From Octopus vulgaris (taxonomy: Eukaryota), in contig OX597815.1 of the NCBI GenBank assembly GCA_951406725.2, forward strand, positions 150,784,001 through 150,848,000: a stretch of DNA of 64,000 nucleotides, written 5' to 3'. The stretch's first letter is position 1. Each line of letters begins with the position of its first letter. The notes beneath the pieces were generated by a model. The model did not search any database and was not told where the DNA came from. It saw nothing but the letters and a program-made list of their open reading frames with translations. A program made the position numbers and the translations under genes. This document shows positions 4,855 to 54,942 of this stretch, piece after piece.

Positions 4855-4967
4855 ATATATGCAGAAATATATGCGACCAACTTTAGAACCTTTTGCAGAA
4901 ACAAAAACTCGTCCAACTACCAAAATCGTTAGACATGTGCTTTGGTCCAAGAATTTAACAAACATTT

Positions 4968-5150
4968 AACTGGTCATCACCACTCCATTTAGTGAAAAAG
5001 AAATCTGGTGATTATAGACCTACTGGAAACTATAGACGACTCAACGCTATTACCATTCCAGATAAGTATCCTATACCAAATATCCAGGATTTTGCAACTT
5101 CTCTGCATGGTTGCACTATATTCCCAAAAATAGATTTCATACAAGCATAC
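4968..5150 (+). pseudogene. Ty3/Gypsy reverse transcriptase fragment
   Basis: WSSPLHLVKKKSGDYRPTGNYRRLNAITIPDKYPIPNIQDF...IFPKIDFIQAY, the classic Gypsy RT N-terminal motifs; truncated at (TATG)n. Confidence 0.9.
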
Positions 5151-10919: not shown

Positions 10920-11748
10920 CTTTTTATCACAAGTTTTGTTGGAGCACCTGGAGTATTGCATGCGTAGCGGGCTTACTTACTAACTGCAGGCTACGGTGCC
11001 ATACTATTCGTTCTTTTCAGCTGTCTAATACTTTCCTGATTATTCTGGCCGTGCCAAGGAGGCAAATCTTTTGTACCTGTTCTACTGGGCACTCTGTTCC
11101 AATTTCTTTTATATTCCACTTGATACCTTCTCATACTGTTCCCAAGGACCCAGCAATAATTGGCATTATTTTCCCCTTCTTCATTTTCCATAGCCGGGAT
11201 ATGAGATTTGTATCTGTCTATCTTTTCACCTTCCTTCTTCGCTATTCGTGTGTCAAAGGGGCATGCAACGTCAACTGTATAGCATATATGGTGCACCTTG
11301 TCCACTACCACTAGATCCGGTCTGTTATGCTCTAGCACCTGATCTGTTTGGATCGGGAAATCCCAGGGGATTATCATAGTCTCCGATTTCGCCACTCTCT
11401 GCGTCTGTGCTCATACAATGTCTTGTTTCTCTCTAACCCTTACTGCTTTCACAGTTTCCAATGTAGCACTTTCGTTACCTGGTCGTGTCGCCACAGCTTG
11501 TAATGGTTTCGGGCAAGTCTAGAACATTCGGTCGTGATATGGACAATGTTTCATCCACTCTATTGCAGATGCGGCACAGCGGAGACACTTGCTCATTCTT
11601 AATTGACTGTGTAGTCCCTTCTTTCGTAATCCTTCTTCACGTCCTTTTTGTACATCTTCCTTTGTTTTTCTTTTTTTTCTACTTTCAATACTCCCTCGAT
11701 CCTAGCTGTCATTAACATGGTTTCCTTACTGTGGGCTAGGTATCTCAT
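10920..11748 (-). mobile_element. R4/Dong-like LINE 3' portion (zinc knuckle plus RLE), third subfamily, frameshifted
   Basis: SPLCRICNRVDET...RHDQV..LHWKL, then WDFPIQTDQVLEHNRPDLVVVDK...VDVACPFD. Confidence 0.85.
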
Positions 11749-11833: not shown

Positions 11834-12339
11834 TTCACTAGTTATATTTTTATAGTGTGCTTTCACTTCATTACCGAACACAGCTCTGTGTGCCTTGGAT
11901 ACGTGCTGTGTTTTGTTTTGATGCTCTGATGGTTACTGTATTGAAAGTGTTTTGCGTAGGATGTGGGCAGTGCCCAGGAAGCCAATTCTCTGTATGTTAT
12001 ATGTGTTTGTAAGTCCTGGTGTCTTGGTTATGTATTTGTCTGAATATTTTTTAATCATGCCTAATGCACCTACTATGATAGGAATTGTTTCTGTTTTTAG
12101 ATTCCACATTCGAGTTACCTCTATTTCCAGGTCTTTGTATTTTGAAAGTTTCTCCATTTCTTTTAGAGTCACGTTGTCATCTTCTGGTATTGATACATCA
12201 ATTAGAAAGCATTTTGCTTCTTCATGATCTCTGACAACTATATCTGGTTTGTTGGCTTTAATTTCTCTATCTGTGTGTATTGGCATATCCCAGAGAATGG
12301 TTGCTTCCTCGTTTTCTGTGACCTTTTCTGGTGTGTGCC

Positions 12340-14305: not shown

Positions 14306-14309
14306 CAAA

Positions 14310-14660
14310 TTAATAAATAAAACATATGCATATATACATACATATATGTACGTACCTACATCTATATGTATATATACATGCATATATGGGTACAGGACAC
14401 CAAAAAAACGTCGAACACAATGAGAAACGAAAACATAAACACAAAACCAAGAAAATGGACATTTTTCTTAAACAACGAAAAGATAGAGTACAAGACATGC
14501 AACACAAGGAAAATTCCCCTTCTTCAGCCGCCTCTGTTTCATCTACTCCGCGGTTCGAAGGTAAAGGCGAGACACGACTTCATGGAAACAGTCCTTCCCG
14601 CAAAAGCAGATTAAATAAAATTTGCGATTTTTTTACGGAGGGTTAAAAATGGTAACATAT
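14310..14660 (-). mobile_element. Repeat family B (paralog of 54415-54885), probable PLE 3' end carrying a permuted HHR motif
   Basis: About 340 bp reverse-complement homology to 54545-54885; flanked by TA-rich tracts. Confidence 0.7.
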
Positions 14661-25879: not shown

Positions 25880-26824
25880 ATGGTACGATTATAATTGTAA
25901 TGGTACGATTATAATTGTAACGGCAATGATGGCCGTCTCCCCACGAGCCAATCAAAGCTAAAAAATGATAACATTATCGTAGCACCAAAATGTTTTTGGA
26001 AACTAAAAGGAAAACTAAATCAGTATACCAAATCGCTTGTCCTATGGTTAATCTGGAAGCGCGTCCCCCAGGGAAGAGCCAGCCTGGGATCGAAAGTCAT
26101 CAACTGGCACAAACTCTTCTCCGAATACGGACATGGATGGTCACTTGAACGGGAAATCCCCCAACTCGAGCCCTCCAAGTTCACCACCACAACCACCACA
26201 GAAAGAAAAATGTAAACGGAACAAATGGACCCGAGAAGAGTATAAAGAAGTAATATACGCTTATTACTATGCATTAGGTAGGCCATCTCAAGAGAGACAC
26301 ACCGCAAACTCTTACAGTATATAGAGAACACGGAATCAAGACAGTAGGCCCTATTTGGACGAGAACAAATTAGCAAATGTGAGGAGGGATATCCTTAGAA
26401 ATAACAGACTCACAGACAGTGAAATAAGCGCGATCAAGCACGCAACGGAAAATGACATAAATATAAGACACAAAGGAAGTGAAGAATCAGATGAACAGTA
26501 TAGCCCGCCACGAGGCTTAATTGAAAGACTGCCATCTGACCAAAGTACGCAAAGGCCTGAAGATACAAGAAATTCTATTGTACCTGTTAAAGATAGCCAG
26601 GAAAACGAAAAAACAACAGTAACTGAAGATCTCGCATTTGCTGAAGAACACAGAGAGTCTATAGCAGAAATGAGGCAGAAAATCCTGAATACGCTTGAAG
26701 TTGTAAGACATACAAGTATGAATGATAGAGAACCACTTCATAAACTCTCAAATACAAACCAAAATAAAAAACAAATCCAAATTGGCAACTATGTAACAAA
26801 TGAAATAATACGAGAATTAAAACA

Positions 26825-26825
<1 letters not shown>
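25880..26825 (+). mobile_element. 5' end / N-terminus of an R4/Dong-like LINE, 3'-truncated
   Basis: RNKWTREEYKEVIYAYY...DENKLANVRRDILRNNRLTDSEI, typical of the R4-clade N-terminus; starts after (TAA)n; one in-frame stop at 26322-26324. Confidence 0.7.
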
Positions 26826-27040
<215 letters not shown>

Positions 27041-38415: not shown

Positions 38416-38507
38416 GGCTGGCCGTGATCTAGTAATCTCAAGATTAATCAGCCGAAATTACTACGATGATCCGGTTCTTGACTGAGGACTGAGGGTTTCG
38501 AATGTCC
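38416..38507 (+). ncRNA. Non-circularly permuted hammerhead-like motif, intact core
   Basis: GGCUG..UAGUAA-UC-UCAAGA..CAGCC-GAAA-UUACUA..UCUUGA-CUGAGGA; three perfect helices of 5-6 bp; within repeat ~38095-38580 that ends in (TA)n. Confidence 0.75.
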
Positions 38508-42015: not shown

Positions 42016-42228
42016 GTGAAATAGAAAGATGAATAATCTTGTAGTAGATTAATCAAAAGTTTAACCGATACCTTAGTAGCAAAAATCACAGCAGTAAACA
42101 GCACGGTTGGAGGTACAACCATATGGTGTTGCAACCGTGCGTTGGTGCGGATAATTGAAATTAAAACATTATTGGTGAATTGAAGAAATGGAGCTGAACG
42201 CAGATTGAACAGAAATCGTTTTATTTCA

Positions 42229-42308
42229 TTCTACACGTGTTTCGAAAGGCACAAATGACCAAATTCCGATTGAATAATGGGACCATATTGTGTCTTTCTC
42301 TTCAGGAA
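42229..42308 (-). ncRNA. Minimal type I hammerhead ribozyme in the PLE pLTR
   Basis: UUC-CUGAAGA-GAAAGACACAA...UUGUGCCUUUC-GAAA-C(ACGU)G-UA-GAA, followed by AAUAAA. Confidence 0.9.
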
Positions 42309-42902
42309 GAAAATAGGAAATCCGTTGGAAAAACAAAAACAGAACAGAGGCGGAGCAAAAACAAATCGAACTATGCTCCTAAGAGCCCATGGCGAAACTG
42401 TTTATCAGTGTATGTTGAGAACCGGTGGCTGAAGAATTTAACGGGTCAGGCATCGGTCAATCATGTGGGTGAGGGTGTGTAGGTGTTCTTTGTGACCGAG
42501 AATAAAGTTCTGACTATTTAAGGAATATTGGATGTTTTATAAGGGGCGAGAAAAAATCTACTTAGAGACGTGTGTGTGTGTATACTGTTCTATATATGTG
42601 TGTGTTGGCGTAGGGGTAGAAAACATTTTTTGTGTACGTGTGTGCGTTTGATCGTTCGGCTGTCAGTGGCTACTGCCGTCAGAACCGTTGGGCGGCAGAA
42701 AAAAAATATATATATATTATGTTTTATGTGTGTGTGTGTTCATCTAAGCCTGCCTTGTCAAGGAAACCCCCCGCTGTGAAAAAACCAAGCCCCGTTTGTC
42801 TTACAGGAGTAATTCCCCTTGCAGTGGTTAATCGTAGATATCTTAAAGGCTATTTCAGAATTTGTTACCAAGGGCTATGGGTGCCGGTATTATTTATAAA
42901 CG

Positions 42903-44060
42903 CTATTTAAAAGCCAGATAAGTGTAGCGCCGCCAATGGGGGCATCGAAAAGCCGACTGTAAAAGCCCATTTACCATCCGGCCTCTGGCAAACAAAATAT
43001 GGAAGAGTTCGGAGACACAAAGGTTGCACTGCCTTCTGCCCCTATCAAATGGGAGGGCCACCGACAAAATTGACCATTCCAGCCTGTAGCTTAAGTTCGT
43101 ATCCTTCAGTCGCCATATTAGCTTACTGAGTCCCGTGGTCTGGCGCTTGTTCATGTCCCGAAAAGTTGCGTAATGGTTGGAGACACGCAAAGACAATCTT
43201 GAGGATGAGGCCCCTACATAAGTGAAGACATCTGAGTCCGTGTAAACCTTGCATTTGTAGACGGCGTTTTTGATCTTGGAGTTCGCCGACGTGAATCTTA
43301 TTCTGCTAGGATTAGTTTCTGAAATTAGAACTGCGTTCCTGTCACTATATTCGTTCCGAGACCTGCAGCCGCTTACTACTCTATTTTCCACTACGTCACT
43401 ATTAACTATAGGAATAACCCCTGATTCTCCACTATCTATCAGAGTGCTGTCATTGCTACTGCCCGTGGTGCTGCTATTGCGGGAAATGATGCTGGGGATG
43501 CTATTGGGGCTCTCTACCCTACTCCCATTGTTACCGTCAACCACAACACCCCTATTTATAACTATACCCCTAGTGGGTACTCCCTGGCTGGAGCTGAGAT
43601 TATGTGTCACTGTACTGGCTCTCATATCATTATTACTACTATAACTATTCCTACTGAGCATTAAACCGGGAGCGGAAGAGGCTGTGCCTCCGGAAAAAGG
43701 TGATAGGGTCTTAGTAAGTAGCCTATTATTATGGGAGGCGATTATCTGGGCGAGGTTTTTAGTGTTGGAGAAAGCTATCCTAACTTTATGCGAGTTAACC
43801 GTGGAGTAATATTTGGAATTTCTGGGGAAGTTATTGGCGATGGCTTGTCTAAACATGAGGGGGAGGTTAGTTCTAATCTGCTTACCAAAGGGGATTACAA
43901 ACCATATATGCTTATTCCTATCAGTGTGATGGGTCGGGACGCCAGCTCTCGCGTTCGGGTGGGTGATTCTCGGATGAACAACGGGTCTTGGGTTAGTGTA
44001 AGACCTCCCGGACCGATAATTATCCTTGTTCGCTAAATTAAATGCGGGAGCGACTACCCC
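42903..44060 (-). CDS. PLE ORF C-terminal part: RT thumb/linker plus GIY-YIG endonuclease (Naiad-like)
   Basis: Frame stays open from the inversion junction past the listed start at 43856; HIWFVIPFGK..TN, SHNNRLL, AVYKC...YVG...R..NH...WSIL...CNLC.SE...N...CPH. Confidence 0.9.
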   Translation of the reverse strand, partial: GVVAPAFNLANKDNYRSGRSYTNPRPVVHPRITHPNARAGVPTHHTDRNKHIWFVIPFGKQIRTNLPLMFRQAIANNFPRNSKYYSTVNSHKVRIAFSNTKNLAQIIASHNNRLLTKTLSPFSGGTASSAPGLMLSRNSYSSNNDMRASTVTHNLSSSQGVPTRGIVINRGVVVDGNNGSRVESPNSIPSIISRNSSTTGSSNDSTLIDSGESGVIPIVNSDVVENRVVSGCRSRNEYSDRNAVLISETNPSRIRFTSANSKIKNAVYKCKVYTDSDVFTYVGASSSRLSLRVSNHYATFRDMNKRQTTGLSKLIWRLKDTNLSYRLEWSILSVALPFDRGRRQCNLCVSELFHILFARGRMVNGLLQSAFRCPHWRRYTYLAFK

Positions 44061-44066
44061 GGGGTA

Positions 44067-44381
44067 GTAGGGGCCTCATCCTCAAGATTGTCTTTGCGTG
44101 TCTCCAACCATTACGCAACTTTTCGGGACATGAACAAGCGCCAGACCACGGGACTCAGTAAGCTAATATGGCGACTGAAGGATACGAACTTAAGCTACAG
44201 GCTGGAATGGTCAATTTTGTCGGTGGCCCTCCCATTTGATAGGGGCAGAAGGCAGTGCAACCTTTGTGTCTCCGAACTCTTCCATATTTTGTTTGCCAGA
44301 GGCCGGATGGTAAATGGGCTTTTACAGTCGGCTTTTCGATGCCCCCATTGGCGGCGCTACACTTATCTGGCTTTTAAATAG
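44067..44381 (+). pseudogene. Inverted duplicate of the GIY-YIG C-terminal ~100 codons
   Basis: Translation identical to the end of the minus-strand ORF. Confidence 0.9.
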
Positions 44382-44974
44382 CGTTTATAAATAATACCGG
44401 CACCCATAGCCCTTGGTAACAAATTCTGAAATAGCCTTTAAGATATCTACGATTAGCCACTGCAAGGGGAATTACTCCTGTAAGACAAACGGGGCTTGGT
44501 TTTTTCACAGCGGGGGGTTTCCTTGACAAGGCAGGCTTAGATGAACACACACACACATAAAACATAATATATATATTTTTTTTTCTGCCACCCAACGGTT
44601 CTGACGGCAGTAGCCACTGACAGCCGAACGATCAAACGCACACACGTACACAAAAAATGTTTTCTACCCCTACGCCAACACACACATATATAGAACAGTA
44701 TACACACACACACGTCTCTAAGTAGATTTTTTCTCGCCCCTTATAAAACATCCAATATTCCTTAAATAGTCAGAACTTTATTCTCGGTCACAAAGAACAC
44801 CTACACACCCTCACCCACATGATTTACCGATGCCTGACCCGTTAAATTCTTCAGCCACCGGTTCTCAACATACACTGATAAACAGTTTCGCCATGGGCTC
44901 TTAGGAGCATAGTTCGATTTGTTTTTGCTCCGCCTCTGTTCTGTTTTTGTTTTTCCAACGGATTTCCTATTTTC

Positions 44975-45054
44975 TTCCTGAAGAGAAAGACACAATATGG
45001 TCCCATTATTCAATCGGAATTTGGTAATTTGTGCCTTTCGAAACACGTGTAGAA
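44975..45054 (+). ncRNA. Minimal type I hammerhead ribozyme (inverted arm copy)
   Basis: Same motif as 42229-42308 on the opposite strand. Confidence 0.9.
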
Positions 45055-45112
45055 TGAAATAAAACGATTTCTGTTCAATCTGCGTTCAGCTCCATTTCTT
45101 CAATTCACCAAT

Positions 45113-45199
<87 letters not shown>

Positions 45200-53779: not shown

Positions 53780-54119
53780 GTAAATATAATATCTGACAAT
53801 TGTTCGGTAGCCATGATAAAACTCCGAGTTTCGGATGTCTGGGCGAAATCCACACCGGCATCTCTTCAGTTATGGGGCCATCGAAAAAAATGCTATGAAA
53901 ATGACCGTTAAAACAAAGGGGAATTAACGGTCATTTTCATAGTATTTTTCTTTTCGATGGCCCCATAACTGAAGAGATGCCAGCGTGGGTTTCCGCTCCG
54001 ACATCCGAAACTCGGAGTTATATCATGGCTACCGAAGAATTGTCACATATATTTACAGATAAATTCCTCTATTTACATACTATCGAGGTCTCTTTCATTC
54101 TCTTGTTGTCTTGTCATTT
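53776..54119 (+). mobile_element. Fold-back PLE-like mini-element with an HHR in both arms, inserted in the (TA)n of a family 2 SINE
   Basis: Arms 53776-53911 and 53924-54060, tail to 54119; AUAA-CUGAAGA-GAUG...CAUC-c-GAAA-CUCGGAG-UU-UUAU; SINE halves at 53525-53730 and 54143-54308. Confidence 0.85.
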
Positions 54120-54390: not shown

Positions 54391-54600
54391 AGAGAGAGAG
54401 AGAGGGGGGAGAGAGATTTGTTATTTGTATATATCTTGTAAATAAATGTATATACCTTCTTAACAGCCCTTCTTGTCTTGTTATTTTCCTTGTCCTGTCT
54501 TTTACTGCTTATATTTTGTACTGTCGTTACTGTCCTGTTTTTGTTACCATTTTTACTCCTCTGCAAAAAGATCTCAAATTTTATTTGATTTGCTTTTCGC

Positions 54601-54695
54601 AGGAAGAAAAGTTTCTATCGAAGATACGTCTCGCCTTCACCTTCGAAACGTAGAGTAGATGAAACCATGGCGACTGAAGAAGGTGTTTTTTTCCT
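54601..54695 (+). ncRNA. Non-circularly permuted hammerhead-like motif, intact core (family B)
   Basis: GAAG..UACG-UC-UCGCC..CUUC-GAAA-CGUA..GGCGA-CUGAAGA; the paralog at 14507-14600 (-) shows compensatory changes. Confidence 0.75.
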
Positions 54696-54872
54696 TGTGT
54701 TATTTGTCCTGTACTCTTTTTTTTTTTTAAGAAAAATGTCCAGTTCCTTGGGTTGGTGTCTATATTTTCGTTTCTCATTGTGTTCGACGTTTTTTGGTGT
54801 CCTGTACTCATATATGCGTGTATATATACATGTAGAGGTAGGTACGTACATATATGTATATATATATGCATA

Positions 54873-54942
<70 letters not shown>

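Follow-up and report, generated by a model that had tools for sequence, protein, structure and literature searches.

The analysed window is a stretch of 64,000 nucleotides of the Octopus vulgaris genome (GenBank assembly GCA_951406725.2, contig OX597815.1, positions 150,784,001 to 150,848,000, forward strand), and it carries three copies of repeats that contain a short motif resembling a rearranged hammerhead ribozyme. Positions given below are those of the window, and the family labels A, A2, B and C were coined in this analysis. The copy at 54.6 kb belongs to family A, the unit of which is 826 nt long and non-coding; its match to the unit begins at 54459, not at 54415 as a sequence-only reading of the window had placed the start of the repeat. 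An older copy of subfamily A2 and a young copy of family B, the latter at 38.4 kb, complete the set (Table 1).

Hammerhead numbering and the usual roles of the core nucleotides are used throughout. All elements of the core are present on the forward strand between 54603 and 54680, in the order stem II strand, P4 strand, cut site, GAAA, second P4 strand and stem I strand with CUGAnGA, and every motif piece listed by the sequence-only reading was found at its position. The usual core would be assembled from four separate strands. G10.1 and one side of stem II would come from the 5' strand, the cut site from block S and the GAAA from block G, with stem I and CUGAnGA supplied by the last strand; helix P4, which is shown by covariation, would clamp stems I and II. 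The strand order is non-circular, and the circular three-way-junction order of hammerhead types I-III was not found. According to the available text of Eckert et al. 2023 (PMC10085705), a hammerhead can be split into blocks C, G and S, which are assumed to be uninterruptible, and the block orders SGC and CSG have been validated.

In the family consensus and covariation check that had been set beforehand, GUC, GAAA and CUGANGA were kept: the C segment is exact in 29/30 copies of family A, the G segment in 27/30 and the S segment in 27/30. All stems covaried in 13 chosen representatives of subfamilies. The pairs G10.1-C11.1 and U16.1-A15.1 were kept in 13/13 representatives, stem II was Watson-Crick in 65/65 cells with 3-4 pair types at positions 2-5, and stem I was paired in 65/65 cells; N7 was A, U or G and H17 was C, A or U. 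The representatives were hand-picked and had to have intact 5' ends, so these figures show the diversity of pairs and not a rate. The letters CGAAA and CUGAnGA and a non-G H17 were built into the search, partners were selected by best pairing, and base pairs were counted on anchored positions, because MAFFT misplaced block S when the lineages were aligned. This covariation is real evidence beyond chance, and the data show the four helices and their strand order. The paralogue on the reverse strand (motif 14597-14521) has two two-sided changes and one one-sided change in stem III and one one-sided change in stem I, in agreement with the compensatory changes noticed from the sequence; its GAAC, also noticed, is present but private (1/30 subfamily copies), and 19/30 read an intact CCUUC-GAAAC. 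Family-wide conservation and covariation support the proposal that the same permuted hammerhead, in the same order and register, is shared by the family at 54.6 kb and the one at 38.4 kb.

The partner of the stem II 3' strand had been flagged beforehand as uncertain. Among 149 distinct segments, which formed 58 clusters, 19 clusters passed a filter for stems I and III, and 39 were dropped as truncated, unrelated or degenerate. A 5' partner pairing in at least 4.5 of 5 positions was present in 12/19 clusters. On the 3' side, with an insertion of 0-2 nt allowed, 0/19 had such a partner; at the same threshold, equally wide control windows gave 0 clusters upstream and 1 downstream. An unbroken block C, with the stem II strand 0-2 nt after CUGAnGA, was thus found in 0/19 clusters, whereas P4 was present in 19/19 with a score of 3-8. 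The question is settled: stem II is formed by the 5' strand and not by the bases after CUGAnGA, and therefore the RNA corresponds to an SGC/CSG circle opened between A9 and G10.1.

Table 1. Repeat copies in the window and parts of the motif at 54.6 kb
Feature	Position	Strand	Basis or remark
5'-truncated copy (~430 of 826 nt) of a non-coding tandem element, family A, (TA)n at end	54459..54885	+	95.5% match to the 826-nt unit of copy L028
Older subfamily A2 copy, motif 14597-14521, private GAAA>GAAC	14309..14657	-	84% match over 14657-14309
Young family B copy (tandem unit 855-879 nt), same architecture at 38416-38488, predicted cut after C38437	38016..38580	+	
Stem II 5' strand (GAAG from 54603), G10.1 = 54603	54603..54607	+	family GAAGG; window copy with A at position five
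P4 5' strand, equivalent to the stem I-II 'interaction' helix in type-SGC/CSG	54611..54619	+	PMC10085705, available text
Block S	54625..54635	+	core pattern and representatives; junction pile-up
Stem III 5' strand (U16.1 = 54629)	54625-54629	+	part of block S
GUC	54628-54630	+	
H17 = C54630, predicted cut directly 3' of C54630	54630	+	part of block S
Stem I 5' strand	54631-54635	+	part of block S
4-nt linker between stem I and stem II	54636..54639	+	3-6 nt in 19/19 clusters
Block G	54640..54652	+	core pattern and representatives
Stem II 3' strand; GAAA; stem III 3' strand	54640-54644; 54645-54648; 54648-54652	+	parts of block G
P4 3' strand	54658..54665	+	pairing, clusters, folding
Stem I 3' strand (54669-54673) and CUGAAGA (54674-54680)	54669..54680	+	chain exits core after A9
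Purine run and U/C tract	54681..54700	+	local hairpin or helix competing for the stem II 5' strand, family A only; nested minimum-energy folds

The hairpin that had been described after the core is clear in the A and C lineages and not in the others. Two further details concern the surroundings of the motif in family A. The bases immediately 5' of G10.1 (54599-54602), a pyrimidine tract and CAG, look like a 3' splice site and are absent from most other subfamilies, and an AUG in good context precedes the stem I strand (54667) and is not retained in A2.

A strict S-G-C descriptor gave 2 matches in 464 kb, both in the window, and 0 in 400 kb of random blocks, where it missed three truncated or diverged B-lineage copies; five block shuffles gave 0-2 matches per 464 kb, so a single match proves little. 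No hammerhead was among the best 150 of 380 Rfam matches for the whole window, and no hammerhead model was among the 3 matches at the motif at E<=10. Folding z-scores were unremarkable (-0.4 to +0.85), these being nested folds without pseudoknots.

The 54.6 kb repeat gave 2,668 first-look candidates in the 2.8-Gb genome, and the 40 scored are 94-96% identical; the 40 scored copies of young family B have ~99.6% identity and a tandem spacing of 855-879 nt. Copies of family A are 5'-truncated, end in (TA)n and occur in tandem (L004, L007, L015, L028) or inverted (L025, L006) pairs. The pattern CGAAA-N24-32-CUGAnGA has 37,658 matches genome-wide, versus 6,262 for the reversed control, and the split architecture was recognised by eye in 18 of the first 30. 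Three copies, the truncated or diverged ones mentioned above, lie in the 400 kb of random blocks (40 x 10 kb). Since both counts indicate it, the number of core-bearing copies in the genome is estimated at ~20,000. Families A and B contain no open reading frame (ORF) with an N-terminal GIY-YIG and a C-terminal reverse transcriptase, their units being non-coding. No significant alignment was found between the two units (5/100 shuffles scored as high), and the description of the families as unrelated holds at the sequence level but probably not by origin, as both most likely descend from Naiad-type Penelope-like elements (PLEs).

In the available text of Craig et al. 2021 (PMC8557442), canonical hammerheads are reported to be lacking in Naiads, eight of which were flagged 'HHR_half_core', and (TA)n targeting, 5' truncation and tandem and inverted copies are given as marks of PLEs. 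Its supplement has 54 Naiad consensus sequences; for 25 of them, the final ~600 nt were surveyed by eye, with names assigned by file order. Four of the 25 ends have the split-core form (Obim, Ovul, Amil and 2_Movir, from two octopuses, a coral and a box jellyfish), with the same four-strand order and different helices. Five have an intact type-CSG hammerhead with the same P4, which is the same circular order opened elsewhere; these are four nematode records and one chelicerate record (Parc, 3_Nbra, Hcon, Hpol and the one preceding Lpol), which in the file stand ahead of Naiad-1_Nbra, Naiad_Hcon, Naiad_Hpol, Naiad_Asuum and Naiad_Lpol. For the motif of the octopus Naiad, an exact pattern gave 456 matches in the genome versus 0 for the control. 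Two copies (L214 and L220) contain the Naiad ORF tail, recognised by eye against the published consensus, the 3' region and the motif together, with the motif downstream of the ORF tail, and three further of the 84 Naiad protein matches sit 0.85-1.9 kb upstream of listed motif places. Pfam gave no match for two ORF pieces, one of them the 73-aa Naiad tail piece. Family B has no significant alignment with the octopus Naiad, and six motifs of families A, B and C were not found in the supplement, where line breaks can hide matches. The Naiad link is shown for the architecture and would extend to families A and B, which are assigned to the Naiad type on their architecture and insertion habit.

Some other Naiad ends show features of their own. 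In arthropod Naiads (records before Naiad-2_Dst, Naiad-4_Dst and Naiad_Sdum of the same supplement), a different conserved hairpin surrounds CCCC-CUGAnGA and is possibly a further ribozyme arrangement. A squid Naiad end (Esco, the record before Naiad_Adux) has stem II, III and I strands and CUGAUGA in split-core order, has no GAAA at the expected place and looks degenerate. In octopus Naiad copies L213, L216 and L212, the core overlaps two AUG codons and is closely followed by a splice-donor-like site; the octopus consensus is listed there as having no start codon.

An indirect sign of cleavage may be seen in the pile-up of 5'-truncated copies at or just after the predicted cut. Junctions between (TA)n and the element were tallied by hand among the matches listed for families A and B, and from a complete listing for the octopus Naiad. 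They fall at or after the predicted cut in 21/25 listed loci of family A, against 8/31 positions (26%), in 25/28 listed loci of family B, against 12/31 positions (39%), and in 14/24 loci of the Naiad, against 9/31 positions (29%). In family B, 6 listed junctions lie exactly at the cut and none 1-10 nt upstream; the minus-strand totals are 80 upstream of the cut, 933 across it and 473 downstream, the listed rows being one per locus. A structural stall of reverse transcription would be a poor explanation, because one strand of every helix has already been passed at this point. Transcript contigs of four runs show a dip over the cut in 3/4, which is no evidence either way for cleavage.

The motif probably belongs to the non-circularly permuted hammerhead ribozymes (SGC/CSG/GCS), with the chain opened in the catalytic core between A9 and G10.1, and would be carried by Naiad-type PLE repeats and their derivatives. 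It would be located in the 3' repeat (pLTR) of Naiad-type elements and, in families A and B, in non-coding tandem derivatives of 0.83-0.88 kb that may borrow the reverse transcriptase-endonuclease in trans. Cleavage is predicted after H17 (C54630) and could take place only once the whole motif has been made, CUGAnGA being the last part to be transcribed. From tandem or read-through transcripts, the cut may free RNAs of unit length or with a defined 5' end, part of which may then be reverse transcribed into (TA)n. The split form might have originated from the CSG form by partial tandem duplication. It is fairly likely that this is an active, previously undescribed seventh hammerhead topology with a core across the A9/G10.1 break, common to cnidarian and cephalopod Naiads and their non-coding derivatives, that together with the nematode and chelicerate CSG forms it is the missing ribozyme of Naiads, and that it sets, in vivo, where the RNAs that are reverse transcribed begin at their 5' side.

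Several observations weigh against this interpretation. Seven of the 19 clusters are below the cut-off for the 5' stem II strand, 5 of them being single old copies, and 16/25 Naiad ends have neither form in their last ~600 nt. An ORF-linked copy of family A was not found at the one locus examined, and family A has no sequence match to the Naiad 3' region (62/100 shuffles as high). In family A, the stem II 5' strand can be sequestered by the competing helix, which in nested folds is strengthened in the window copy. This copy also reads GAAGA with a mismatch in stem II, in contrast to GAAGG with five Watson-Crick pairs in 28/30 copies of the family; the window copy may be impaired by the two together. 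The junction enrichment of the Naiad is only ~3-fold, the upstream control window undercounts because it needs nine more matching letters, and the junctions peak at +9 to +13 (31/49 loci among the matches listed), in an AT-rich linker with microhomology to (TA)n, which explains part of this peak. The literature searched, which covered few subscription papers, contains no natural or engineered hammerhead broken at A9/G10.1.

The likeliest alternative, though still an unlikely one, is that a real and conserved fold has little or no cleavage activity by itself and serves as a protein-binding or reverse-transcription signal, with the pile-up caused by microhomology or enzyme drop-off. The position of the junction peak at the AT-rich linker agrees with this, as do the weak in vitro cleavage of metazoan PLE hammerheads (PMC4209133, available text) and the anole Poseidon element, for which the available text of PMC11167929 reports that hammerhead cleavage is dispensable for insertion in vitro and that no reads start at the cut. 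However, the catalytic nucleotides, with tolerated variation at N7 and H17, are kept across unrelated helices and phyla, and family B junctions fall off right at the scissile bond despite AT-rich words upstream as well. In favour of a split hammerhead, RNAs of types SGC and CSG that are built from the same four helices undergo cleavage in vitro (PMC10085705). In addition, PLE hammerheads usually have a conserved extra nucleotide between 9 and 10.1 (PMC4209133), so a chain break at this step is plausible, since the step tolerates disturbance.

An ordinary type-SGC hammerhead, with stem II taken from the bases right after CUGAnGA, is very unlikely and largely refuted: in family A and young family B, positions 11.3-11.5 can find partners in the three bases that follow the core, but this register leaves two unpaired bases ahead of G12 and reaches 2.5 of 3 in only 4/19 clusters, the 3' partner fails in all 19 at 4.5 of 5, and the coral, jellyfish and octopus Naiad ends have none by eye. 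It is even less probable that A9 becomes linked to G10.1, in the next or the same unit, through splicing or circularisation that restores block C, the active form being type-CSG or type-SGC. The pyrimidine tract and CAG of family A would suit such a joint, and in Penelope of D. virilis one end of an intron falls at the hammerhead (available text of PMC4209133), but AG directly precedes G10.1 in only 3/12 clusters with a full 5' stem II and GU directly follows A9 in 0/19, on which grounds the model was rejected; the A9-G10.1 joint was also not seen among the transcript contigs of the four runs, a weak test. A chance arrangement of short words amplified with the repeat, for which the descriptor matches in shuffles, the unremarkable folding scores and the lack of an Rfam match might be quoted, is refuted by compensatory changes in four helices, many subfamilies and other phyla and has a negligible probability.

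Other parts of the window contain hammerhead-like motifs of different elements. A young Penelope-like family, with a C-terminal GIY-YIG-like end, is represented at 42162-45121 by an inverted copy with a truncated 5' side. Open frames of 899 aa occur in many members of this family at 99% identity, and its repeat has an ordinary minimal type I hammerhead near 42300 (-). With this ordinary motif, the family (42.1-45.1 kb) was ruled out as the parent element. Just 5' of the family A copy, at ~53850-54040 (+), a hammerhead-like motif of a different element lies in an inverted repeat, with CUGAAGA, a 4-bp stem and one extra C ahead of GAAA. Short ORF remnants at 4959-5150, 10991-11410, 11933-12330 and 26325-26830 are presumably of retrotransposon origin (Gypsy-like reverse transcriptase and non-LTR endonuclease-like). 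The output of a repeat finder on the window was swamped by microsatellites.

If the proposed topology is confirmed, the assumption behind the six-permutation hammerhead scheme would be overturned, and non-circular permutations would move from rare environmental RNAs to animal genomes with tens of thousands of copies. It would also explain the apparent spread of Naiads without a ribozyme and provide a candidate for cutting the RNA where such an activity was reported lacking. The natural series from CSG to the split core may illustrate how permutations arise by tandem duplication and might be an entry point for ribozyme engineering.

The available text of PMC10085705 describes 583 metatranscriptome sequences of type-SGC and two metagenome sequences of type-CSG, and no SGC, CSG or GCS form in known genomes save one weak GCS candidate; no permuted hammerhead in PLEs or animals was found in the literature searched, with the coverage given above. 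The octopus motif shares with type-SGC and type-CSG the circular strand order, the short stem I-II linker, a further helix linking stems I and II on their other sides, and the full core. It differs in that the chain of its block C is broken between A9 and G10.1, a break that this source assumes to be impossible, and in that it resides in an animal retroelement of very high copy number, whereas the others are environmental RNAs. With the Naiad clade it shares (TA)n targeting, 5' truncation and tandem or inverted copies, and octopus Naiad consensus ends have this architecture, although families A and B lack an ORF, and the Naiad 3' region has no detectable match in them. Like the minimal type I hammerheads of canonical PLEs, it is placed in the pLTR and has a disturbed 9/10.1 step (PMC4209133, available text). 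Like non-LTR retrozymes (bioRxiv 10.64898/2026.07.22.740005, a preprint whose available text uses type I descriptors only), families A and B consist of tandem non-coding units with one ribozyme motif each, but a type I hammerhead was not found in them. The PLE and retrozyme hammerheads described in these sources are circular permutations (type I), often without stem III, and are thought to act as dimers, whereas the octopus motif has, besides P4, a stem III of 4-7 bp, and a single stretch of ~75 nt is enough for it to form.
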